Made by a program: the position numbers and the translations under genes. Below, piece after piece: positions 31,882 to 47,834 of a DNA stretch of 64,000 bases (position 1 is its first letter; each line of letters begins with the position of its first letter). Under the pieces are notes generated by a model that was not told where the DNA came from, did not search any database, and saw nothing but the letters and a program-made list of their open reading frames with translations. The DNA is from Candidatus Dormiibacterota bacterium (GTDB lineage Bacteria > Chloroflexota > Limnocylindria > Limnocylindrales > CSP1-4). The stretch spans positions 721 through 64,720 of the forward strand of contig DASQIK010000088.1 in the NCBI GenBank assembly GCA_035631615.1, given 5' to 3'.

Positions 31882-33135
31882 TCAGCTCCGGGCGAGCTCC
31901 CGCTCCGCCCGGGAGATCCACGCAAGCACGGCTTCACGGAGCTTGTCCAGGCCGCTCGAGACGGCCGCGGACGTGCTGCCGATGTTCGACAGCTGGACCT
32001 TGAGGCTGCGGACGTTCTCGAGGGCCTCGCGGATGGCCGTGAGGCACGCCGTGACCTCGGCGAGGTCGACCTCGGCCTCGGACTCGCGAATGGTCGTGAG
32101 CGCGAGCAGCCGGACCAGTCGAACCGCTGCCTGCAGGGTGGCGGCGTCCGGGTCCGCCGGGTCGATGACCGCGTAGACGTCCCCCGCTCGCACGTCGAAC
32201 GGGGCGATGCCACTCGGGGCGTGCTCCGGTGTGAACACCACGAGTGCGGCTGCCGCGTCGCGATTGGTCTTCGCGGCGCGGAGCTCGTCGCGCATCTCGC
32301 GGCCCGACATCCTGCGGTTCTTCGCCTCGATGACCACCCGCAGGTCGCACCCATGCGCGAGGTCCGGGTCCAGCGTCAGCACGAAGTCGCCCTTCTTCGA
32401 GCGGCCCGCGTCACCCGCGTCGTTGCCGCAGCGCTCGAGCAGGTCGTTCGCGCCGCGCGCGATGTCGCCGAGCATGCCTTCCAGGAGGTCCTCGAAGTCG
32501 CCGCCCTTGGCGGCCGACTTCGCCCGCTGCTCGCCGCGCGCCTTCTGGGCGGCCTCGATGGCCACCAGCTGCTCATGGAGCGCCTTGAAGCCGTTCTCCA
32601 TCTCCATGCGGAACTGGTGCAGCGGCGAGTTCATGCGGGTCGGGTCGAGCAGCTGCGCCAGGCGCGAGCCGTCGCCGTCGAAGTACGTCTCGAGCATGGT
32701 CCCGATGCGGCCGATGGCGGAGTCACGCCGACGCGGGTCGAACAGCTCGTCGACCATGGAGCGGAGCTTGCCCCGGTCGCCGAGGAATGCCTCGAGGGTG
32801 CGAGGGAGGCGCCCGCCGTCGTCGCCGAAGTTGGCCCGGAGCACCTGCTCCAGGGCCGCCGCGGCCTGTTCGTTCGCGGCGCGGCTCTGGTCCGCGAACC
32901 GGTCGAACTCGGCGCGAACGGCATCCACATTGAGTGTGACGCCGACGCTCTGGAGGGCGGTCAGCCCGATGCGCAGCGCACGCTCGACCAGGATTGCGTG
33001 GTCGTCCATCGGCTGGGCGCCGAGCCACGTGGCGAGCGCGCCATCGCTCAGCGACAGGCGGTCGACGTCGATGCGGTCGCCCGCGACGCGGACGGCCGGC
33101 TGGGCGCTCGGGAAGGTGACGATGCGGGCTTCCAT
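31882..33135 (-). CDS. Hypothetical protein with a long helical/coiled-coil N-terminal part and a PD-(D/E)xK-like C-terminal core (RmuC/DUF2130-like architecture)
   Basis: Track ORF 31882..33369 trimmed to ATG 33135 (MEARIVTFPS). Candidate nuclease core KKGDFVLTLDP...LRVVIEAKNRRMSGREM...AALVVF. Host-like codon usage. Confidence 0.6.
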   Translation of the reverse strand: MEARIVTFPSAQPAVRVAGDRIDVDRLSLSDGALATWLGAQPMDDHAILVERALRIGLTALQSVGVTLNVDAVRAEFDRFADQSRAANEQAAAALEQVLRANFGDDGGRLPRTLEAFLGDRGKLRSMVDELFDPRRRDSAIGRIGTMLETYFDGDGSRLAQLLDPTRMNSPLHQFRMEMENGFKALHEQLVAIEAAQKARGEQRAKSAAKGGDFEDLLEGMLGDIARGANDLLERCGNDAGDAGRSKKGDFVLTLDPDLAHGCDLRVVIEAKNRRMSGREMRDELRAAKTNRDAAAALVVFTPEHAPSGIAPFDVRAGDVYAVIDPADPDAATLQAAVRLVRLLALTTIRESEAEVDLAEVTACLTAIREALENVRSLKVQLSNIGSTSAAVSSGLDKLREAVLAWISRAERELARS

Positions 33136-33235: not shown

Positions 33236-34099
33236 ATGGAGGCCACGGATGAACGCCGCGCGGTCGCGGCTGCCATCGCGATCGCCGCGGAGCTCGGCCT
33301 GGATGCCGAGGACGCGGACGTGCTCTCCAACTCGAACCGGCTCGCCCTGCGCCTGCTCCCCTGCGACACGCTCGCGCGCGTCGCGCCGCCGACGCATCAG
33401 GCAGCGGTATTCGAGGTCGATCTCGCGCGCCGGCTGGCCGGCACCGATGCCCCGCTCGGCGCCCTGGAGCCTCGGGTGGCGCCGCGCGTCTACCGGCGCG
33501 ACGGGCACCTGATCACGTTCTGGACCTACTACCGACCCCTCGGATCGGCGATCGCATCGGATGCCTACGCCATCGGCCTCGAAGCGCTGCACGGCGCCAT
33601 GCGCGAGGTCGAGGTTCCTGCTCCGCTCTTCACCGATCGGGTCGCCGAGGCGGAGCGACTCGTCGCGAGCCGAGATCGAACGCCGGCGCTCGGCGATGGC
33701 GACCGCGCGCTGCTCGGCAGCACGTTACGGAGCCTGACCCGAACGATCCTCGATCGCGGCGCCGCCGAACAGCTGCTCCACGGCGAGCCGCACCCCGGCA
33801 ACGTGCTGAGCACGAGCTCGGGCCCGCGCTTCATCGACCTCGAGACGTGCTCTCGCGGCCCGATCGAGTTCGACCTCGCGCACGTCCCCGAGGCCGTGAG
33901 CGATCGCTACCCAGGCGTCGACCGAGCCCTGCTCCGCGACTGTCGAACTCTCGTCCTCGCGATGGTCGCGACCTGGCGCTGGGATCGCGACGACCAGCTG
34001 CCGGACAGACGCGCGTTGGGCATCGAGTGGACCGCACAGGTCCGCGCGGCGGGCGAGGACCGTCAGGCTCGGACATCCGCGATCGCGGTCGACGAGTAG
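33236..34099 (+). CDS. Aminoglycoside/choline-kinase-type phosphotransferase family protein
   Basis: Track ORF 33158..34099 trimmed to ATG 33236, which follows AGAAGGGAAG. Catalytic-loop-like LLHGEPHPGNVL and FIDLETCSRGPIEFDLA motifs. Confidence 0.7.
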   Translation: MEATDERRAVAAAIAIAAELGLDAEDADVLSNSNRLALRLLPCDTLARVAPPTHQAAVFEVDLARRLAGTDAPLGALEPRVAPRVYRRDGHLITFWTYYRPLGSAIASDAYAIGLEALHGAMREVEVPAPLFTDRVAEAERLVASRDRTPALGDGDRALLGSTLRSLTRTILDRGAAEQLLHGEPHPGNVLSTSSGPRFIDLETCSRGPIEFDLAHVPEAVSDRYPGVDRALLRDCRTLVLAMVATWRWDRDDQLPDRRALGIEWTAQVRAAGEDRQARTSAIAVDE

Positions 34100-34542
34100 A
34101 CGAGCTCACCTTTGACCCGCTCCTCGAACCGGAGGGGCATGCCCGGCGCGGACGTCGCGAACCAGAACGTGTCGACCGTGTCGCCATCGACGCGCGTGTA
34201 GCGCAGGCAGTCGTAGCGGCCGGCCGGGATGTCGATCGTCTCCTTGTCGATCCGCGTGGAGTCGGCCGGCATCGAGGCGTGCTCCTGGAACTCGCGCCAC
34301 GTCGCGTGATCGGAAACCGGCTCGGTCAGGCGCCGTCCATCTGGCGCTTCGGCCCAGGACTCCCGGTCTGCCCCGTCAGCGTCGCACGACAGGAACCGAG
34401 TGACCCGGACGATGGGTTCGGCGCCTGCCTCGATGACGAGCGAGCGGACGGTCCGCCCCGGCGGGCAGCCTTCGCGGATCTCGGCCGCCGTGAACGGCGT
34501 CGGCAGGTGGTCCGGCCGGAGGACGTGCGGATCGGCGACCAC
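34063..34542 (-). CDS. Hypothetical protein (159 aa) directly downstream of uraH
   Basis: Good GC3. It starts 4 nt after the uraH stop. I recognise no motif. Its 3' end overlaps the convergent phosphotransferase gene by 37 nt. Confidence 0.55.
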   Translation of the reverse strand: MVADPHVLRPDHLPTPFTAAEIREGCPPGRTVRSLVIEAGAEPIVRVTRFLSCDADGADRESWAEAPDGRRLTEPVSDHATWREFQEHASMPADSTRIDKETIDIPAGRYDCLRYTRVDGDTVDTFWFATSAPGMPLRFEERVKGELVYSSTAIADVRA

Positions 34543-34546
34543 GGGC

Positions 34547-34900
34547 TCAGCTGCCGCGATAGGTCGTCATCGAATAGGGCGCCAGCAGCAACGGCACGTG
34601 GTACGAGCGCGTGACGTCCGCCACACGGAGATCCACCGAGATGCGCCGGAAGAATCGATCGTCGGATGCCTCGGGCGTCGTCCGTCCGGAGAGGATGAAC
34701 TCGAGCCGATAGTCCCCCGGCGACATCGGTCGATCGAGGAGGTCGCGGACGCGGCCGTCGGCGTCGGTCAGGGCCTGGGTCAGCCGGATCGGGCGGGCAT
34801 CCTCGCCGAGCTTGTACAGCGACACGTGGACGCCCGCTGCCGGCGAGCCGGTCTCCGTGTCGAGAACGTGCGTGGAGATGGTCGGCGCTTGTTCGGCCAC
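34547..34900 (-). CDS. uraH: 5-hydroxyisourate hydrolase (transthyretin-like)
   Basis: 117 aa with a GTG start. Motifs: ISTHVLDTETGSPAAGVHVSL, HVPLLLAPYSMTTYRGS, with the diagnostic C-terminal YRGS tetrapeptide. Confidence 0.88.
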   Translation of the reverse strand: MAEQAPTISTHVLDTETGSPAAGVHVSLYKLGEDARPIRLTQALTDADGRVRDLLDRPMSPGDYRLEFILSGRTTPEASDDRFFRRISVDLRVADVTRSYHVPLLLAPYSMTTYRGS

Positions 34901-34913
34901 CTATCCTCCCGGA

Positions 34914-35336
34914 ATGAGCCAGCTGCGGATCACCGTCGGCGACCTGCACTTTAGCGCCCGCTGGGAGCCGGCCGCGCCCCAGACGATCGAGGCGATCCGC
35001 CGAATGCTTCCGATCGATTCGAAGCTGATCCACTGCCGCTGGTCCGGCGAGTCGACCTGGATCCCGTACGGCGACTTCCGCCCCGGCATCGACTACGAGA
35101 ACCACACCTCCCATCCGGCCCCTGGCATGCTCGCGATGTATCCCGGCGGGATCAGCGAGTGCGAGATCTTCTTCCCGTATGGCGCCTGCACGACCTCGTC
35201 GAAGGTCGGCCAGCTCGCGGCGAACCACTTCGCGACGATCGAGCCGGACGATGGCTGGGGAGATCGACTGCGCGAGGTCGGCCGACGCGCACTGTGGGAG
35301 GGTGCCCAGGCGATCCGCATCGATGAGGTGCGGTGA
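34914..35336 (+). CDS. DUF3830-like (cyclophilin-like fold) protein
   Basis: Track ORF 34812..35336 trimmed to ATG 34914 (MSQLRITVGDLHFSARWEPAAPQTIEAIRRMLP...HCRWSGES.W). The longer version would overlap uraH. The family call is from memory. Confidence 0.65.
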   Translation: MSQLRITVGDLHFSARWEPAAPQTIEAIRRMLPIDSKLIHCRWSGESTWIPYGDFRPGIDYENHTSHPAPGMLAMYPGGISECEIFFPYGACTTSSKVGQLAANHFATIEPDDGWGDRLREVGRRALWEGAQAIRIDEVR

Positions 35337-35518
35337 TGGAGTTCTGGGCATTTCTCGGGATCGCGTTCGTGGGCGTCGTGTACTTCATCTGGCGAAGCCG
35401 TCGCGGAACCAGCCGCGGGCTCGACACGCTCAACAAGGGCCTGCCCGACGACCTCCGCGACAAGAACACCGGGATGATCAGCCTGCCGAATCGCGGGCGT
35501 CCCTGGGGGCGCGGGTAG
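35333..35518 (+). CDS. Small single-pass membrane protein (61 aa), paralogue 1
   Basis: ATGA overlap with the previous gene, with GAGGTG upstream. MMEFWAFLGIAFVGVVYFIWRSRRG.... High GC3. Confidence 0.5.
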   Translation: MMEFWAFLGIAFVGVVYFIWRSRRGTSRGLDTLNKGLPDDLRDKNTGMISLPNRGRPWGRG

Positions 35519-35567
35519 GCTGCGGGCGGCGACGGCGCATGATCGCCGTCGCAGAGGAGGTCAGCCG

Positions 35568-35804
35568 ATGCCGACCGAGATCCTGGTGTTCTTCGCGATC
35601 GCGTTCGTCGTCGTCGTGGGGCTGCTCTGGTGGAGTCGCCGAGGCGATGCCGCGGACCCAGCACCGATCGCCCGTGCCGTTGTCGATCGTCCCGAACCGG
35701 GTATCTCCAACGAATCGTCGATCGGGCCGCACCGGGATATCGGCCGGCCCTTCCGCGTGGACCACGGCGATCGCCCGACCGACGGCGGCGATCGTAGCGC
35801 GTAG
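35568..35804 (+). CDS. Small single-pass membrane protein (78 aa), paralogue 2
   Basis: Strong SD GAGGAGG 7 nt upstream. MPTEILVFFAIAFVVVVGLLWWSRRG... shares the F..IAFV.VV...W.SRRG pattern with paralogue 1. Confidence 0.55.
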   Translation: MPTEILVFFAIAFVVVVGLLWWSRRGDAADPAPIARAVVDRPEPGISNESSIGPHRDIGRPFRVDHGDRPTDGGDRSA

Positions 35805-35819
35805 CCGCTGCACCTAGTC

Positions 35820-37247
35820 GTGGACCTGCTCGTCCGTGGAGGCACAGTCGTCACCGCGGCCGCCTCGAGGCATGCGGACGTGGCGATTCGCGGCGGTGTG
35901 ATCGAGGCGGTCGATGACGACCTCGGGGCACTCGCGTCGGGCGGGAACGTCGAGGTCGTCGACGCGACCGGTCTGCTCGTGCTGCCGGGTGCCGTCGACG
36001 TGCATACGCACACGCGTGTCGCCACGGACGCCGAGCCGGATCGGTTCTTCCGGGATTCCGTCGCCGCGGCCTTCGGTGGCACGACCACGTTCCTCGCGTT
36101 CAACAACCCGGGGACGGGCTCGTCGCCCGCGGCGGAGCGCTCGCTGCTCGCGGGGCTTCGGGAATGGCGCGCTGCCACGGAGCGAGATTCGGCGATCGAC
36201 TACTCGGTGAGCCTGGCGATCAGCGGCCACATGGACGATCCGGTCGCCGAGCTGCCGGCCATGGTCGATGCGGGCGTCGCGACCGCGAAGGCGTTCATGG
36301 TCTTCGACTTCCGGCTCGGTGACCGCCGGATCTACGACGCGATGCGGGTGCTGGGCGGCCGCGGTGGGATGCTGCAGGTCCACTGCGAGGATCCGGTCCT
36401 GATCGACACCGCGGTCGCGGATGCCCTCGCGCGCGGCGACACGGCGCTGCAGTTCCACGCGGCGACTCGGTCAACGGAGGCGGAGGCCGTCGCGACGCAC
36501 CGCGTCATGGCCTTCGCCCGCGCCGCGGAGGTGCCGGTCCACGTCGTCCACCTGTCGTCCGCGAGCGCGCTGCGGCACGTGCAGGACGCAAAGGCGCGCG
36601 GGGTGCGCGCCCACGCCGAGACGTGCCCGCACTATCTCGCCCTGACCGACGCGCGATATGCATCGGCGGATCTCGCCTCGGTTGCGGAGTGCGTCATCTC
36701 GCCGCCGCTGCGCCCGATGTCCGACCAGGATGCACTGTGGGCCGGCCTCGCGGCCGGCTCGCTCGACCTCATCGCAACGGACCATGTACCAGATCGCCTG
36801 GCCGTCGAGAAGGCCGAGGCCGTCCGCGGCGCCTCGTTCAACAAGGTCAGCAACGGCGCGCCCGGCATCGAGACCCTGCTCGCGATCGCCTATTCCGAGG
36901 GCGTCGCCAGGGGCCGGATCACGGTCGAACGCATGGTTGACCTCCTCGCCACCTCGCCCGCCCGACTGTTCGGCCTGGGGCACAAGGGGGCCATCGAGCC
37001 AGGCCGCGACGCGGACCTCGTCCTGTTCGACCCGGCAGCGCGGCGCACGCTCCGCGCCACCGACCTCCACCACACGAGCGACTACACCCCGTACGAGGGC
37101 TTCTCGATCGCGGGCGCCGTGCGCTCCATCTTCGTCCGCGGCCGCCCGGTGATCCGCGACGGCCGGTTCGTCGGCACCCGAGGGTTCGGCCAGTTCGTGG
37201 AGCGCGGCCAGGCCGGGCATGACCTCGGGCGGATAACGGCTGGGTAA
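35820..37247 (+). CDS. Cyclic amidohydrolase of the dihydropyrimidinase/D-hydantoinase family (possible allantoinase role)
   Basis: 475 aa with a GTG start. Motifs: PGAVDVHTH, carbamylated-lysine region ATAKAFMVF, LQVHCED, VHVVHLSS, ETCPHYL, ISPPLR, IATDHVP. Confidence 0.85.
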   Translation: MDLLVRGGTVVTAAASRHADVAIRGGVIEAVDDDLGALASGGNVEVVDATGLLVLPGAVDVHTHTRVATDAEPDRFFRDSVAAAFGGTTTFLAFNNPGTGSSPAAERSLLAGLREWRAATERDSAIDYSVSLAISGHMDDPVAELPAMVDAGVATAKAFMVFDFRLGDRRIYDAMRVLGGRGGMLQVHCEDPVLIDTAVADALARGDTALQFHAATRSTEAEAVATHRVMAFARAAEVPVHVVHLSSASALRHVQDAKARGVRAHAETCPHYLALTDARYASADLASVAECVISPPLRPMSDQDALWAGLAAGSLDLIATDHVPDRLAVEKAEAVRGASFNKVSNGAPGIETLLAIAYSEGVARGRITVERMVDLLATSPARLFGLGHKGAIEPGRDADLVLFDPAARRTLRATDLHHTSDYTPYEGFSIAGAVRSIFVRGRPVIRDGRFVGTRGFGQFVERGQAGHDLGRITAG

Positions 37248-38258: not shown

Positions 38259-39874
<1,616 letters not shown>

Positions 39875-39878
<4 letters not shown>

Positions 39879-40771
39879 CCGGCCGCGCGTCGCCGGACGG
39901 TCGCGTCGATGAGGCCGTGCGGCTCGGTCGTCGAGACGAACACCTCGCCCGGGTTGTCGAGCCCGAACGGCGCCAGGTCGACCTTCCAGTGGTGGAGGTT
40001 CGGCAGGACCATCCGGACCCACTCGATCGACGGCTCCGCGTCCATCATCGCCGTGGCCATGATCCAGATCGACGCCTGGACCGACGGGCTGAAATGCTCG
40101 GCGAGCGATTGCCGCAGGGCCACGCGGGCGCGGTCCCAGGCGGCGTCGAAGTCGAAGCTGTCGCTCGCAGCCACCTCGGTGCGCAGGCCCCACGTCGCCC
40201 GGAGCTTGGTCGCCATCAGCCGATCGTCGACCTCGGGGAGCGTCGTGTAGGCGTCGCGGTCGAAGCCGCTGAAGGCGGACTTGGTGGTCTTCATGACGGT
40301 GAGGTCGCCGACGCCGGCCTCGACATCGACGGCACCATCTGGGCCAACGGTGACGCGGACGAGGCGTGTCAGATCGCCCGCGCGGGTGAACGCGTCGGGC
40401 GCCTCGCCGCCGCTCTCGATCGGGATCCGGAGCCAGCGGTGCTCCTCGATATCCACCATGGCCCGGTCCACCAACGGGTGGGTGGCGAAATGGCGCGCCA
40501 GCTCGAGCCCGAACGCCTCGGGAGAGCCGGTCAGTCGATCGCGGGCGAACGCGTAGACGGTGTTCTTCATCGTGTCGGTGGCCACGAGGTTCGCGTTGTC
40601 GCCGTCCACGTGCACCGCCGCGAAATCCCCCTCGAGCGCGATCGCGACGGTCAGGTCGCGAAGGTCGTGCCGCTCCGGGCCGCGACGAACGGTCACCAGG
40701 CGGATCCGCGACTTGCCGTAGCGGTTCTCGCCGAGCTCATAGTCCGTGTTCGCGTCGCGGCCGTCAGCCAT
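39875..40771 (-). CDS. Urate oxidase (uricase)
   Basis: Track ORF 39875..41242 trimmed to ATG 40771. Motifs: [34 protein letters not shown], which is typical of bacterial tetrameric T-fold uricase. Confidence 0.9.
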
Positions 40772-41297
40772 GGGTCGGCCTCGCGGCGGCCGCGTCGCTC
40801 GCCAGGGCCCGCTGGCGGTCGATGGCGATGTCGATGACGGCGTCGAGCGCCCGCCGGAGCTCCGAATCCCGCTCTCGCGCCATGGCGGCGCGCAGGTCGG
40901 GCAGCAGCTCGGGGCGCGATCGACCGGCCACGAAGACACAGTAGCGGAAGCCGAAGCGCGCCTCGTACGCGTCGTTGAGGCGCTCGAGCTCGGCGCCCAC
41001 GGAGGCGAGATTCGCCGCTGCTGCCGCGCCGTACCCCTGCTCCCGGTGGGACATCGCCGAGACCGACGCCGGCGGCGCGCCGAGCCGCGGATGGGCATCG
41101 ACGAGCTCGAGCTGCTCCGGCACCGGCATCGCGTGCGCAATGTCTCGCGCCGCCTCGAACAGCGCCGCCCACGACCCGAATGGGCGCCGGGCCGCGAGTC
41201 GCGCCAGGAACCGGGGAGCCCCCTCGAACAGCGGCGCGACACCCGCCTCGAACTCGGCCGCCGTGGCCGCGTCCAGCGCCTCGATGGCGACGCTCAC
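40764..41297 (-). CDS. uraD: OHCU (2-oxo-4-hydroxy-4-carboxy-5-ureidoimidazoline) decarboxylase
   Basis: C-terminal 177 aa of track ORF 40764..42500, from GTG 41297 (GTGA overlap with the upstream stop). Motifs: LVDAHPRLG, EQ.G.......L..LN..Y..RFGFRYCVFVAGRS. Confidence 0.85.
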   Translation of the reverse strand: MSVAIEALDAATAAEFEAGVAPLFEGAPRFLARLAARRPFGSWAALFEAARDIAHAMPVPEQLELVDAHPRLGAPPASVSAMSHREQGYGAAAAANLASVGAELERLNDAYEARFGFRYCVFVAGRSRPELLPDLRAAMARERDSELRRALDAVIDIAIDRQRALASDAAAARPTHG

Positions 41298-42148
41298 CAG
41301 CCGCCGGCGTCGCGCAGGAGCCGGTGCAGGATCCGCGCCGAGACCGCGCGGCGATAGTCGGCGGTGGACCGGACGTCGTCGATCGGCCGGAGCTCGCCGG
41401 CGAGCGTCTCGGCCGCCCGATCCGCGACCTCCGGCGTCGGGTGCGCGCCCTCGAGGACCGCCTCGGTCGCGTGAGCGCGGATCGGCGTCGCCGCGACGGA
41501 GCCCAGCGCGACGCGCACGTTCGTCCAGCCCGTCGACCCGAAGTCCTCCCAGGCGAGCGCCATGACGACCTTCGAGATCGCCTGCGCGCGCCGCGTCCCA
41601 ACCTTCCGGAAGCGCAGCTCGCGACCCCGGGGCAGCGGGACTCGGACGTGCAGGATCAACTCGTCCGGCGCCAGCGCGGTTCTGCGATAGCTGACGAAGA
41701 AGTCCGACGCCGCGACCTCGCGCTCGCCACGCTGCCCACCCACCAGGATCGTCGCGTCCGCGGCGAGCAGGATCGGGAGCGTGTCGCCGGCGGGCGAGGC
41801 GTTGGCGATGTTGCCGCCGAGCGTCCCGCGGTTCTGGATCTGGGCGGCGCCAATGGTCGCGGCTGCCTCGACGAGCGCCGGCAGGTGCTCGCGGCACAGC
41901 GCGGACCGACGGATCTCGGTGTACGTCGTGCGGGCGCCGAGGACGAGCGAACCCTCCTCCAGCGAGATCCCGCGCAGGGCGTCGATGCGCGACAGGTCGA
42001 GCATCCGGTCCGGGATCGGCCCGAGCTCGCCCGTGATCGCGACCATCACGTCGGTGCCGCCCGCGATCGGCCGCGTCGGCCCGGCCGCGAGCCGCTCGTA
42101 GGCCTCGAACAGGTGCCGCGGCGTATCGATCGGTGGCTCGGCGGGCAT
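41294..42148 (-). CDS. Xanthine dehydrogenase-family FAD-binding subunit
   Basis: 284 aa. Motifs: IAGGTDVMV, AAQIQNRGTLGGNIANASPAGD (CoxM/XdhB-type FAD-binding domain). Confidence 0.88.
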   Translation of the reverse strand: MPAEPPIDTPRHLFEAYERLAAGPTRPIAGGTDVMVAITGELGPIPDRMLDLSRIDALRGISLEEGSLVLGARTTYTEIRRSALCREHLPALVEAAATIGAAQIQNRGTLGGNIANASPAGDTLPILLAADATILVGGQRGEREVAASDFFVSYRRTALAPDELILHVRVPLPRGRELRFRKVGTRRAQAISKVVMALAWEDFGSTGWTNVRVALGSVAATPIRAHATEAVLEGAHPTPEVADRAAETLAGELRPIDDVRSTADYRRAVSARILHRLLRDAGGW

Positions 42149-42159
42149 GGCGCTCGCGC

Positions 42160-42632
42160 CTACTCCGCCGGGCTCGCCACAGCCGCGATGGCGTCGACGA
42201 TCTTCGTGTAGCCCGTGCAGCGGCAGAGGTTGCCGGCGATGGCCTCGCGAATGGCCTCGTCATCGGGGCCGCCGCCGGCGTCGAGATAGGCGCGCGCGGC
42301 CATGAGCATGCCGGGCGTGCAGATCCCGCACTGGGCGGCGCCGTGATCGAGGAACGCCTCCTGGAGCGTGTCGAGCGCGCCGCGCTCGCGCGCAGCGAGC
42401 GACAGCCCCTCGACCGTGCGCACGATCCGGCCCTCCACCTGGCAGACGGGCACGAGGCACGCATCGACGACCTGGCCATCGAGGAGCACGGAGCACGCAC
42501 CGCACTCCCCTTCCCCGCAGCCCTCCTTCGTCCCCGTCAGCCCGAGGTCCTCGCGAAGCACGTCGAGCAGGCGCCGCATGCCCGGCACGTCGACCTGGGC
42601 GGGCGCGCCATTCACGAGGAACCGGTACGCGC

Positions 42633-42636
<4 letters not shown>
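42160..42636 (-). CDS. Xanthine dehydrogenase-family [2Fe-2S] small subunit
   Basis: Track ORF 42160..42987 trimmed to GTG 42636 (GTGA overlap). Motifs: GCGEGECGACSVLLDG and CGICTPGMLM...NLCRCTGY, the two cluster motifs. Confidence 0.9.
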
Positions 42637-44960
<2,324 letters not shown>

Positions 44961-45010: not shown

Positions 45011-46186
45011 CTACCAGTCGGGCGATCGCGGGATGGGTTGCCGCTCGCGGGCAAGCTCCTCGAGCAGCGCCACCGCGTGCTCCATCGGAGGCAGCGCCTG
45101 CATGTCGGCGGCGAACGCCTGGGCGTTGCGCCGGAACCGCTCGTCGGCGAGGACCTCGCGGATCCGCGACCGGATCGTGGCGGGATCACGCTCGCTCGGC
45201 GCGACCGCCCGGCCCAGCCCAAGCGCCTCGACCCGCTCCGCGGTGTACGGCTGGTCGCCGCCGATCGGGATGACGACGAGCGGCAGCCCGAGGCGCAGCG
45301 CCTCCTTCGTGCCGTTGAACCCGCCGTGCGCGACGAAGAGCGTCGATTCCGCGAGGACCAGGATCTGCGGCACGAAGGCCTCGATCCGGACGTTCGTTGG
45401 CGGCGTGCCGAATCTCGCCGGATCCTGGCCGCGCCCGATGGCGGCGACGACCTCGATCGGCTCGCCGGCCACCGCCTCGATGATCGCCTCGAACAGGCCG
45501 GGCAGCCCATTCATCAGCGTCCCGAGGCTGGCGAGCACGAGCGGACGATCGCGTGGCGCATCGAGCCAACCCGGGCGCACCTCCCCCGGCCGATCCGGAT
45601 TCTCGTAGCGGATGAAGTGGATCGTCTCGGGGTGCGCCACCTCTCCGTCCCAACGAGGCGGGACGAACGCGAAGTGCAGGTATCGGAACAGCATCTCCGC
45701 CTCGGGGTCGGGCGGCAGCCCGAGCTCTGCGCGCCGGATCGACAGTGTCGGGCCGAGCTGCTCGCGTCGCTCCGGCAGGGAGCTCAGGGAGCCAGCCCCG
45801 ATCGAGGCGTGAGGCCGGTCGAGCTTCTCGGCGACGAGCGAGGCGGCCATCTCGCCGTTCTCGTTCACGAGCACGTCCGGTCGCCAGGCCTCGGCGTGGC
45901 GGACCAGGTCCGGGATCATGGCGAGCGCGGCCCGACCGGCGAAGACCTCGAGCTGCATGAACTGGCGCCTGCGCGGATCGCCGAGCGGCGGTGCGCCGCC
46001 AGAGATCGATTCGAGGTCGTCGGCGCCGCCGGGTAGGTGCTCGAGGCCACTCCGGCGAAGCTCGTCCGCGAATGCCGGGCTGCAGCAGACCGCGACGTCG
46101 TGCCCGGCCGCAGCCACGGCGAGCGCCATCTGCATGATCGAGTTGAAGTGCCCCGTCGCCGGCAGCGTCGTGAACAGGGCCCGCAT
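45011..46186 (-). CDS. GT1-family glycosyltransferase (MGT / UDP-glycosyltransferase type)
   Basis: 391 aa. N-terminal MRALFTTLPATGHFNSIMQMALAV and C-terminal donor-binding HGGFNGTKEALRLGLPLVVIPIGGDQ. Confidence 0.8.
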   Translation of the reverse strand: MRALFTTLPATGHFNSIMQMALAVAAAGHDVAVCCSPAFADELRRSGLEHLPGGADDLESISGGAPPLGDPRRRQFMQLEVFAGRAALAMIPDLVRHAEAWRPDVLVNENGEMAASLVAEKLDRPHASIGAGSLSSLPERREQLGPTLSIRRAELGLPPDPEAEMLFRYLHFAFVPPRWDGEVAHPETIHFIRYENPDRPGEVRPGWLDAPRDRPLVLASLGTLMNGLPGLFEAIIEAVAGEPIEVVAAIGRGQDPARFGTPPTNVRIEAFVPQILVLAESTLFVAHGGFNGTKEALRLGLPLVVIPIGGDQPYTAERVEALGLGRAVAPSERDPATIRSRIREVLADERFRRNAQAFAADMQALPPMEHAVALLEELARERQPIPRSPDW

Positions 46187-46196
46187 GCGGGAGAGC

Positions 46197-47834
46197 CTAG
46201 TCCCGGCCGCGGCGGAGGGCGCGACCCGGCAACGCGCCCGTGTGGGCGCCGTCCTCGACGACGAGGTGCCCGTTCACGATGACGTGCTCGATCCCCTCGG
46301 GGAACTGGCGAGGCCTGTCGTACGTGGCGTTCGCGCGCACCGTCGAAGGATCGAACACGACGAGGTCGGCAATGAGGCCGTCCGCAATGCGCCCGCGATC
46401 CTTCAGCCCGAGCCGCGCCGCCGGCATCGAGGTCATCTTCGCGACCGCGCCCTCGAGGCTGAGCAACGCCTCCTCGCGCACGAACTGCCCGAGGATCCGC
46501 GGGTACGAGCCGTAAGACCGCGGGCTCGGCCTGGCACCGACGAACGTGGAGTCGGTGCCGACCATGGCGACGGGGTGCTGATAGAAGCGCCGCATGCCCT
46601 CGATGTGCGGACCGGGCGTGACCTGGTTCAGGCGCAGCCCCTCCAACAGCAGCAGGTCGCACAGGACGTCCACGAGATCGCCGCCGCGCTCCCTGCCGAC
46701 GTCGCCGAGCGTCCGGCCCTCGAAGGCGAGATTCTCCGCTCTCGCGAAGTAGCCGAGCCGGATGTCGGCGATGCCGCCCGCGCCGGCGTACAGCACGCCG
46801 CGCTCGCGCAGCTCGCCGCGGATGCGTCCGCGCACGGCACGATCGGCGAGGCGCTCCTTCGTCGGCCCGGGACCGCCCGCCTGGACCCACGGTGGCACGG
46901 TGATCAGCAGCCGCGTGCTCGCCCACTCGTATGGATACGCGTCGAACGTGACGTCGAGCCCCTCGGCGCGGGCGTCGTCGACGAGCGCCAGCATCTGCTC
47001 GGGCGTGCCGGGGAACGTGGCCCGGTGGTAGAAGTGCGTGATGTGCGCGGGCGAGCCGCCCCGCCGGCCGATGTCGATCGCCTCCCGGAACGGATCCAGG
47101 AACCGGTCCCCGAGCGCGTACCGAACGTGCGAGTGGTAGAACCCGCCGAGGCGCGCGGCGGCGCGAGCGAGATTCGCCAGCTCCCCCGTGGACGCGTACG
47201 CCCCCGGCGGATAGTCGAGCCCCGACGAGATGCCGTAGGCGCCCTGCTCCATCCCTTCGACGAGCATCGACCGCATCGTCGCCTCGTCGGCGGCGCTCGC
47301 CTCGCGCTCGTTCCAGCCGATGGCGGCCAGCCGCAGCGCCGAGTTGCCGATCAGGAACGCGATGTTGACGCCGAGCCCCCGATCGAACCGATCGAGGTAG
47401 GACTCGACGCTGTCCCAGTCGAAGGCGATATCGGGGTGGCCGTCCAGCCCGGCGTTCATCTCGACGAGCTCGGCGAGGTGCTCCGGGCTCGTCATCGGCG
47501 CGTACGACAGGCCGTCGACGCCGACGACCTCGGTGGTCACGCCCTGCCGGACCTTGGGCTCGTGGCGCGGCTCCGCGAGAATCATCAGGCCCGAGTGGCT
47601 GTGCAGGTCGATGAACCCCGGCGCCACCACCTTGTCCTTCGCATGGACGAGGCGCGCCGCTCGCCCGATCGCGTCCTCGATCGAGGCCGGCTCACGCAGG
47701 ATGGCGATTCGCGCGCTTGCGCCCGCTGCCTCGCGGCTGACGCCAACCGCCGCTGCGAACCCGGGCGCCCCGGTGCCGTCCACGACGGTGCCGTCGAGGA
47801 TCAGGAGCTCGAAGCGCCGCTCGTCCGTCGTCAT
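46197..47834 (-). CDS. N-acyl-D-amino-acid deacylase (D-aminoacylase) family amidohydrolase
   Basis: Track ORF 46197..48131 trimmed to ATG 47834 (MTTDERRFELLILDGTVVDGTG). Motifs: PGFIDLHSHS, QGVTTEV.G.DG, and a family-typical C-terminus (GAHTGALPGRALRR). Confidence 0.8.
   Translation of the reverse strand: MTTDERRFELLILDGTVVDGTGAPGFAAAVGVSREAAGASARIAILREPASIEDAIGRAARLVHAKDKVVAPGFIDLHSHSGLMILAEPRHEPKVRQGVTTEVVGVDGLSYAPMTSPEHLAELVEMNAGLDGHPDIAFDWDSVESYLDRFDRGLGVNIAFLIGNSALRLAAIGWNEREASAADEATMRSMLVEGMEQGAYGISSGLDYPPGAYASTGELANLARAAARLGGFYHSHVRYALGDRFLDPFREAIDIGRRGGSPAHITHFYHRATFPGTPEQMLALVDDARAEGLDVTFDAYPYEWASTRLLITVPPWVQAGGPGPTKERLADRAVRGRIRGELRERGVLYAGAGGIADIRLGYFARAENLAFEGRTLGDVGRERGGDLVDVLCDLLLLEGLRLNQVTPGPHIEGMRRFYQHPVAMVGTDSTFVGARPSPRSYGSYPRILGQFVREEALLSLEGAVAKMTSMPAARLGLKDRGRIADGLIADLVVFDPSTVRANATYDRPRQFPEGIEHVIVNGHLVVEDGAHTGALPGRALRRGRD

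Follow-up and report, generated by a model that had tools for sequence, protein, structure and literature searches.

Our results suggest that a purine-degradation cluster in a Candidatus Dormiibacterota genome specifies a variant of the ureide pathway, with replacements for the canonical enzymes that lead from allantoin to glyoxylate; we put the probability of this reading at about 0.55. The cluster lies in a 64,000-nucleotide stretch (hereafter the window; C88:721–64720) of a metagenome-assembled genome (MAG) of 2.63 Mb, with 89 contigs, 93.4% completeness and ∼71% G+C, and the nearest relatives of its proteins are labelled Chloroflexota or Candidatus Limnocylindrales. The candidate replacements are (i) a hydantoinase-family amidohydrolase, (ii) a D-aminoacylase-family amidohydrolase (amh3) and (iii) a small cyclophilin-like protein of the DUF3830 family. 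Functional assignments beyond family membership draw on comparative genomics. Genes were called with a codon-usage log-odds model because high G+C yields many spurious open reading frames (ORFs). The genes of the cluster are listed below in window coordinates.

34547–34900, minus strand: uraH, 5-hydroxyisourate hydrolase (TIGR02962, 102.8 bits against a cut-off of 87.45)
34914–35336, plus strand: DUF3830, cyclophilin-like, 140 aa (PF12903, 84.5 bits against a cut-off of 26)
35820–37247, plus strand: hydantoinase-family amidohydrolase, 475 aa (TIGR02033, 408 bits)
38259–39878, minus strand: aceB, malate synthase A (Pfam)
39875–40771, minus strand: uricase (Pfam)
40764–41297, minus strand: uraD, 2-oxo-4-hydroxy-4-carboxy-5-ureidoimidazoline (OHCU) decarboxylase (Pfam)
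41294–44960, minus strand: xdh, FAD, FeS and Mo subunits of xanthine dehydrogenase (XDH) (Pfam)
46197–47834, minus strand: amh3, D-aminoacylase-family amidohydrolase (Amidohydro_3), 545 aa
47881–49230, plus strand: guanine deaminase (NF006679, 352.7 bits against a cut-off of 351; TIGR02967, 355.9 bits)

This inventory agrees in content and coordinates with an earlier sequence-only reading of the same DNA, which had named guanine deaminase, three XDH subunits, uricase, uraH with a YRGS end (the protein closes with ...TTYRGS), OHCU decarboxylase, malate synthase and a DUF3830-like protein. The gene order given there needs two corrections: an HTH-XRE gene also lies between the hydantoinase gene and the operon (see below), and aceB, uricase and uraD belong with xdh to a single minus-strand gene string (38259–44960), within which the malate synthase gene is translationally coupled to the uricase gene. 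DUF3830 and uraH are divergent, with their starts 13 nt apart, and the xdh, uraD, uricase and malate synthase genes accompany DUF3830 in most related loci.

Absence of the canonical allantoin-to-glyoxylate enzymes

The whole genome was searched at the protein and profile levels. E. coli AllA, AllC, AllD, AllE and carbamate kinase gave no tblastn match at E<1e-3, and Acinetobacter allantoicase and ureidoglycolate lyase returned only noise (E>1). Hidden Markov models (HMMs) run on six-frame translations of the genome detected no allantoicase (PF03561 and TIGR02961; the positive control, an Acinetobacter plasmid carrying alc, scored 465 bits), a best PuuE score of 48 bits against a cut-off of 424.6, and nothing over cut-off for ureidoglycine aminohydrolase (UGlyAH, AllE), AllA or an AllC-type M20 enzyme. 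Positive controls scored in the allantoicase, AllC, AllE, AllA and PuuE searches. The best tblastn match to E. coli AllB is the window hydantoinase (28.5% identity), which also has the best score in the genome against the AllB profile TIGR03178, 271.5 bits, under the cut-off of 357.85. Urease genes (ureABC) are present on contig C31.

The sequence-only reading had found no AllB/PuuE-type allantoinase, allantoicase, allantoate amidohydrolase, ureidoglycine aminohydrolase or ureidoglycolate lyase in the window. That lack holds genome-wide, and the search for alc, allC, allE and allA that it proposed found none of them. The same pattern extends to other genomes. AllB, allantoicase, AllC, AllE and AllA are all missing from six related genomes with the same type of hydantoinase, apart from a weak M20 paralogue (206 bits) in G070. 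AllE, AllA and allantoicase were found in none of 16 DUF3830-bearing genomes, with controls scoring each time; no alc, allA or allE lies within 10 kb at any of ∼160 DUF3830 loci, and the Sinorhizobium PuuE region holds no alc gene. Within the limits of a MAG that is 93% complete, the canonical downstream pathway is missing.

Conserved DUF3830 neighbourhood

DUF3830 occurs in 34 of the 36 species genomes of the genus, and nearly all of the 30 genus loci inspected have uraH divergent from DUF3830 with the hydantoinase gene next. A scan of species representatives yielded 80 loci whose DUF3830 is 58–95% identical to the window protein; they belong to Limnocylindria, Gemmatimonadales and a few further groups. 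Here, too, DUF3830 is divergent from uraH in nearly all cases, usually with uraD and uricase beyond, and a cyclic amidohydrolase follows it in 72/80. Because the arrangement recurs in 72 of 80 independent genome loci, it is not due to chance. The co-occurrence of DUF3830 with uraH, uraD and uricase, which the sequence-only reading had suggested checking, is therefore conserved.

The amidohydrolase slot is filled in different ways. In 62 loci it holds the window's hydantoinase type (51–89% identity), and in 10 loci a genuine AllB (TIGR03178, 399–539 bits in sister loci; 463 bits in L105), behind which an AllC-type allantoate amidohydrolase is usually encoded. At most 40 nt separate DUF3830 from the amidohydrolase gene in 34/62 hydantoinase-type and 9/10 AllB-type loci, and many pairs overlap by 1 nt. 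In a second scan, of a more distant DUF3830 clade (46–55% identical), a PuuE-type allantoinase gene stands alongside in 21/80 metagenome loci (TIGR03212, 548–556 bits in the two loci tested); DUF3830 is immediately upstream in most of these, and uraD–uraH, sometimes with uricase and xdh genes, come next where the contig is long enough. The archaeon Haloferax volcanii DS2 carries xdh, an AllC-like M20 gene, DUF3830 (HVO_RS01470), an SLC23 permease, a cyclic amidohydrolase, uraD, pucL and uraH on pHV3 (L214, 344612–359016). Its cyclic amidohydrolase scores 298 bits as AllB and 318 bits as dihydropyrimidinase (DHPase), both below cut-off, and the control searches of this species found neither AllA nor allantoicase.

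The DUF3830 gene is thus linked physically to three types of allantoinase gene, both in bacteria and in an archaeon, and is found more widely with modules acting on cyclic ureides and N-carbamoyl compounds. On a Paracoccus pantotrophus plasmid, a genuine allE (302 bits) and a gene for an AllC-type hydrolase adjoin two tandem DUF3830 genes, which weakens the idea that DUF3830 is a plain AllE analogue. The same cluster (L217, 45728–49778 of the record) also has a MurR regulator and a peptide ABC transporter.

Two alternative gene sets

The comparison covered 16 whole genomes: in seven the slot holds the hydantoinase (type a: G000 and G070–G075), and in nine it holds AllB (type b: G061–G069).

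AllB over cut-off: type a 0/7, type b 9/9
In-cluster AllC (345–375 bits): type a 0/7, type b 7/9
amh3 orthologue (54–67% identity): type a 7/7, type b 0/9
Urease alpha subunit: type a 5/7, type b 1/9
UGlyAH, AllA and allantoicase: type a 0/7, type b 0/9

Apart from the weak G070 paralogue, type-a genomes have no AllC-type M20 enzyme at all, and type-b genomes contain amh3 paralogues only (37–43% identity). Urease is more frequent in type a than in type b (one-sided Fisher p ∼0.02). In type-b loci the membrane urate oxidase PuuD replaces the soluble uricase of type a; an example is L105:8186–9220 (PF06181, 342 bits), and other AllB-type loci are alike. amh3 lies within the purine cluster, by xdh and guaD or by uricase, in 11 related type-a loci as well as in the window. 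Two single cases are also recorded here. In G071 (C133:79240–99213), a urease alpha gene lies ∼10 kb from amh3 and the hydantoinase gene on one contig. In G073 (C2:123310–124887), the amh3 orthologue has an in-frame TGA, which could reflect a pseudogene, a sequencing error or recoding.

The hydantoinase-family amidohydrolase

The genome encodes three cyclic amidohydrolases, namely PyrC (contig C6), a canonical DHPase on contig C27 (C27:23283–24680; TIGR02033, 579 bits) and the window enzyme. The neighbours of the C27 gene (CN-hydrolase, class-III aminotransferase and (methyl)malonate-semialdehyde dehydrogenase) make up a reductive pyrimidine-catabolism cluster. The window gene has no such association; that context belongs to its paralogue. 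The C27 cluster looks complete (C27:16000–31000), with a CN-hydrolase that is β-ureidopropionase-like and, in addition, a luciferase-like oxidoreductase and an ABC transporter.

Maximum-likelihood analysis places the type-a enzymes together in one clade (100/100 support, stem length 0.65), with the canonical DHPase/D-hydantoinase clade as its sister. The latter includes the C27 paralogue, PDB 4KQN and the Proteobacteria DHPases that adjoin DUF3830; the type-a clade lies well apart from AllB. The window enzyme accordingly falls outside the AllB clade and groups with the DHPase/hydantoinase branch at 100/100; its match to 4KQN has E=2e-88. All metal ligands and the carbamylated lysine are kept (H58, H60, K150, H183, H239 and D315 in 4KQN numbering). 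By contrast, the canonical loops (HxHLDxPxGG..ADDF; KxFMxY..F), numbered 1–3 and which we take to be the substrate gates of D-hydantoinases, are not kept, and all three are remodelled across the clade: loop 1 (HTHTRVA-TDAEPDRF) is shorter and carries an arginine, loop 2 (FNNPGTGSSP) has a six-residue insertion (NNPGTG) and loop 3 (KAFMV[F/Y]--DF) is shortened. The Tyr155 position is Phe in the window protein and Tyr in more distant clade members. The remodelled loops are richer in polar and charged residues, which would fit a polar ureido substrate such as allantoin.

Compared with the D-hydantoinases and dihydropyrimidinases (PDB 4KQN, 1YNY and 1K1D; TIGR02033), the window enzyme thus shares the superfamily, the branch, the HxH motif, the carbamylated Lys, two further His and the Asp, but it differs in its separate long-stemmed clade, its altered loops and its location in a purine rather than a pyrimidine cluster. 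It appears to be a dedicated paralogue within this family. We propose that it is a putative allantoinase, on the basis of genomic slot equivalence and complementarity. The suggestion in the sequence-only reading that the hydantoinase homologue opens the allantoin ring has gained ground: this protein is the best candidate for that step, as it occupies the AllB/PuuE slot by DUF3830, AllB is present in 0/7 type-a and 9/9 type-b genomes, and the genome has a separate canonical DHPase.

The D-aminoacylase-family amidohydrolase

amh3 was absent from the list of the sequence-only reading. Its distribution follows that of the hydantoinase and complements that of AllC. In the PDB it best matches D-aminoacylase (1M7J) and N-acyl-D-glutamate deacylase (3GIP), each at E=1e-67. 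amh3 aligns with them over its full length and, of the 1M7J residues H67, H69, C96, H220, H250 and D366, keeps five of six (the HxH pair, H220, H250 and D366). It differs from both in the replacement of the bridging C96 by Asp, in a ∼60-residue insertion, in its purine-cluster setting and in its complementarity to AllC. Action of an N-acyl-D-amino-acid hydrolase on allantoate, i.e. N-carbamoyl-ureidoglycine, would be chemically reasonable. Context and complementarity make amh3 a candidate allantoate-cleaving enzyme, although this is the weakest step of the proposed pathway.

DUF3830: family, fold and role

At E<1e-3, the small DUF3830 family counts 821 representatives in a set of 1.8 billion proteins, and literature searches on DUF3830, on cyclophilin-like proteins with allantoin and on Limnocylindria with allantoin returned nothing relevant. 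The AlphaFold2 (AF2) model of the window protein has a mean predicted local distance difference test (pLDDT) score of 68. Its top Foldseek match is PDB 3KOP, a cyclophilin-like DUF3830 protein of Arthrobacter sp. FB24 (TM-score 0.76–0.80), followed by the cyclophilin-like parts of the Pictet-Spenglerases KslB and McbB, and then by TM1367 and cyclophilins. The DUF3830 sequence profile also retrieves 3KOP (E=1e-7), while phmmer searches of the PDB with DUF3830 and with the 159-aa protein described below gave nothing useful. 3KOP shares the Pfam family and the fold with the window protein, but only ∼20% identity, and it has no assigned function and hence offers no mechanism. The polar residues conserved across the family are E62, N63 and N104; most members have an SE.E motif, and there is no conserved metal-binding motif. 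Within the genus, identity is 78–95%, which often exceeds the conservation of the neighbouring proteins.

Judged by its neighbourhoods, DUF3830 is clearly an integral and conserved component of the ureide module. The role that we tentatively prefer, at somewhat under even odds, is that it may release glyoxylate from ureidoglycolate or ureidoglycine. Such a role would account for three features: AllA and allantoicase are systematically lacking, there is a link to malate synthase, and DUF3830 associates with enzymes that produce α-ureido acids.

Proposed pathway and its alternatives

The proposed pathway would run as follows: (i) XDH, uricase, UraH and UraD, going by their family membership, would yield (S)-allantoin; (ii) the hydantoinase/DHPase paralogue (35820–37247), presumably neofunctionalized, would open the allantoin ring, as its positional equivalence to AllB/PuuE, the phyletic complementarity and the remodelled loops suggest; (iii) amh3 would probably stand in for AllC and take the first ureido group off allantoate; (iv) DUF3830 may act after ring opening, freeing glyoxylate from ureidoglycine or ureidoglycolate; and (v) glyoxylate would pass to the malate synthase of the operon, and any urea to the urease of the genome. 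The coupling of aceB to uricase implies that glyoxylate is the product. In its fullest form, the proposal would be a complete new route from allantoin to glyoxylate, with a hydantoinase-clade allantoinase, a D-aminoacylase-clade allantoate hydrolase and DUF3830 as a new enzyme of cyclophilin fold, acting on ureidoglycine or ureidoglycolate by elimination of urea or ammonia. In that case DUF3830 would be a missing enzyme of the ureide pathway with a wide distribution, common to Chloroflexota, Gemmatimonadota, Proteobacteria and haloarchaea. We regard this full form as doubtful.

Several observations weigh against the replacement pathway. The window hydantoinase passes the TIGR02033 cut-off, if marginally (408 against 393.25 bits). 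The conserved loops of the DUF3830 model (residues 43–57 and 78–99) have pLDDT <50, and no catalytic site can be named. The complementarity of amh3 and AllC depends on orthology called by identity alone, and all compared genomes are MAGs, some of them incomplete. AllA is also lacking in some DUF3830-free bacteria, which can use an M20 paralogue, ureidoglycolate amidohydrolase (UAH), in its stead; the lack of AllA by itself is thus weak evidence for type-b genomes. DUF3830 also occurs outside purine clusters, where canonical dihydropyrimidinases, FAD oxidoreductases and DHDPS-like genes adjoin it. On Azospirillum, Agrobacterium vitis and Paraburkholderia plasmids (L212, L216 and L215, respectively), hydA–DUF3830 is part of a non-purine cluster with an amino-acid ABC transporter, a DHDPS-family gene and a multi-domain FAD/2Fe-2S oxidoreductase (opine/sarcosine-oxidase-like). 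DUF3830 may therefore have a chemistry that is not confined to the ureide pathway. Finally, ureidoglycine and ureidoglycolate decay spontaneously (PMC13751858, PMC4016543), so that fewer enzymes may be needed than assumed.

The most sceptical alternative is that the pathway ends at allantoin, or that the canonical genes fall within the 7% of the genome that is unassembled; the hydantoinase would then be an ordinary dihydropyrimidinase that is here by chance. The 93% completeness of the MAG and the TIGR02033 score would allow this. We consider it very unlikely, because the same absence recurs in the six other type-a genomes and in a genus-wide PuuE scan, the arrangement is kept in 62 loci, aceB is coupled to uricase, and a canonical DHPase with pyrimidine partners is found elsewhere in the genome. 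Two other alternatives concern DUF3830 itself. It could be non-enzymatic and serve the amidohydrolases as a partner in ligand binding, regulation or assembly, for instance by binding ureides. Its small size (140 aa), the lack of a metal motif, the restriction of conserved polar residues to E62, N63 and N104, the high identity within the genus, often above that of its neighbours, and the related cyclophilin-like proteins without known activity (3KOP, TM1367 and AF2241) all fit such a role. However, cyclophilin-like barrels can be enzymes, as KslB and McbB illustrate, and DUF3830 partners three structurally unrelated families (cyclic amidohydrolase, PuuE and M20), which argues against a specific protein–protein partnership; we therefore regard a non-enzymatic role as unlikely.

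Alternatively, DUF3830 could, as an analogue of HpxA/HyuE, racemize allantoin or hydantoins without a cofactor and so supply a stereospecific allantoinase, with the downstream steps spontaneous or carried out by amh3 alone. Consistent with this, DUF3830 lies immediately upstream of, and often overlaps, AllB, the hydantoinase type or PuuE; it is also found by pairs of canonical hydantoinase and M20 carbamoylase genes, whose classical third gene is a racemase. Racemases are known in hpx clusters, and the allantoinase paired with HpxA (HpxB/PuuE) is (S)-specific (PMC13751858). The racemase role is weakened, however, by the Rhizobium johnstonii pRL10 cluster, which holds both DUF3830 and an Asp/Glu-racemase-family gene, and UraH and UraD already supply (S)-allantoin. 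Moreover, DUF3830 is present in 34/36 genus genomes, unlike the known allantoin racemases, which we take to be sporadic accessories, and a racemase would leave the missing downstream enzymes unexplained. We consider this role distinctly unlikely, and retain glyoxylate release as the tentative assignment.

Additional genes around the cluster

The remaining genes near and within the cluster are as follows.

31882–33135, minus strand: 417-aa coiled-coil protein
33236–34099, plus strand: APH-family kinase (PF01636, E=1e-11)
34063–34542, minus strand: 159-aa protein, starting 4 nt past the uraH stop
35333–35518, plus strand: 61-aa single-pass membrane peptide with an N-terminal transmembrane helix
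35568–35804, plus strand: 78-aa single-pass membrane peptide with an N-terminal transmembrane helix
37273–38025, plus strand: HTH-XRE gene
45011–46186, minus strand: glycosyltransferase, macrolide-type (EryCIII-like/UDPGT)

The 159-aa ORF 4 nt after uraH had been noted in the sequence-only reading and is recovered here. That reading also listed the genes between uraH and the xdh operon; those it named are present, but it omitted the HTH-XRE gene. The latter looks like an insertion between the hydantoinase gene and aceB. Its third-codon-position G+C is below that of its neighbours; a few related loci hold weak copies (38–48% identity) and most have none. The glycosyltransferase gene is inserted between xdh and amh3, and in several related loci amh3 directly follows xdhMo.

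The 159-aa protein matches no Pfam or NCBIfam family (a DUF3108 match is below cut-off), lacks a signal peptide and is cytosolic. Its 364 homologues are all ∼159 aa long and all hypothetical. The AF2 model (pLDDT 95) is an open β-barrel with a weak likeness to RseB/MucB/LolA (Foldseek E=1e-4, TM-score only 0.50–0.58). The gene follows uraH in only ∼5 of ∼110 loci (this genome, L021, L002/L003 and L037); most genus members have the 417-aa gene directly after uraH, and other homologues of the 159-aa protein (67–75% identity) lie amid toxin–antitoxin or signalling genes. The APH kinase stands beside the 159-aa gene only in the window and L021.

The two membrane peptides are paralogues, and L002 holds a 61%-identical copy of the 78-aa one; the 61-aa ORF overlaps the DUF3830 stop by 4 nt. 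They look real, since random sequence of 71% G+C would not be expected to encode hydrophobic helices. Comparable ORFs with an N-terminal transmembrane helix start at the DUF3830 stop in 10 further clear type-a cases, although their sequences are poorly conserved. Such peptides are absent from 34/62 hydantoinase-type loci and from AllB-type loci, and wherever DUF3830 abuts the amidohydrolase; the module can do without them.

The sequence-only reading had proposed that the uncharacterized proteins might supply the missing downstream steps or a transport or regulatory function. This stands for DUF3830, which is conserved with the pathway, but not for the 159-aa protein, whose family does not co-occur with uraH as a rule, nor for the membrane peptides. 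The positions of the 159-aa gene right behind uraH and of the peptides inside the DUF3830–hydantoinase unit, as well as the similar small ORFs in the same gap elsewhere, could be taken to favour catalytic, transport or regulatory roles for them. Given the rarity of the uraH–159-aa order, its unrelated contexts elsewhere, and the absence of the poorly conserved peptides from most loci, such roles are extremely improbable. The 159-aa protein, the APH kinase and the two peptides are best described as lineage-specific additions that are unlikely to act as pathway enzymes.

Comparison with known systems

To our knowledge, the set of ureide-pathway enzymes has been regarded as complete from about 2010 onwards. 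The abundant soil lineage Limnocylindria has none of the known allantoin-to-glyoxylate enzymes and yet possesses a tight purine-to-malate cluster. If the proposed pathway is true, it would give a function to a DUF, add two paralogue recruitments (hydantoinase and D-aminoacylase) to purine catabolism, and correct both automatic 'dihydropyrimidinase' labels and nitrogen-cycling predictions for these soil bacteria. DUF3830 is also present in a genetically tractable archaeon, Haloferax volcanii.

The canonical ureide routes and the instability of ureidoglycine are summarized in PMC13751858. With the canonical pathways (AllB–AllC–AllE–AllA in E. coli; PuuE–Alc–AllA in Pseudomonas and Acinetobacter), the locus shares XDH, uricase, UraH and UraD, their clustering and, as we infer, glyoxylate as the product; sister lineages hold AllB with AllC, or PuuE, in the same slot. 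It differs in that all six canonical allantoin-to-glyoxylate families are absent from the genome, with a hydantoinase paralogue, a D-aminoacylase-family enzyme and DUF3830 instead.

Rubrobacter xylanophilus also lacks canonical allantoate enzymes and has recruited a ureidoglycine carbamoyltransferase (Barba et al. 2013, PMC4016543); in its cluster, an 'uncharacterized protein', Rxyl_2846 (Q1AS70), lies between the allantoinase and this enzyme (PMC4016543, Table 2). Rxyl_2846 may likewise belong to the DUF3830 family. A ureidoglycine carbamoyltransferase route was rejected for the present genome, as tblastn found no carbamate kinase homologue in it; no carbamoyltransferase-like gene was seen in the purine cluster of the window either. 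The Rubrobacter route thus differs from the locus described here, where carbamate kinase is not detectable and the candidates are hydrolases and DUF3830. The two systems are nevertheless alike in that a high-GC bacterium carries a purine cluster without canonical allantoate enzymes, and that the gap is filled, or in the present case would be filled, by a recruited paralogue.

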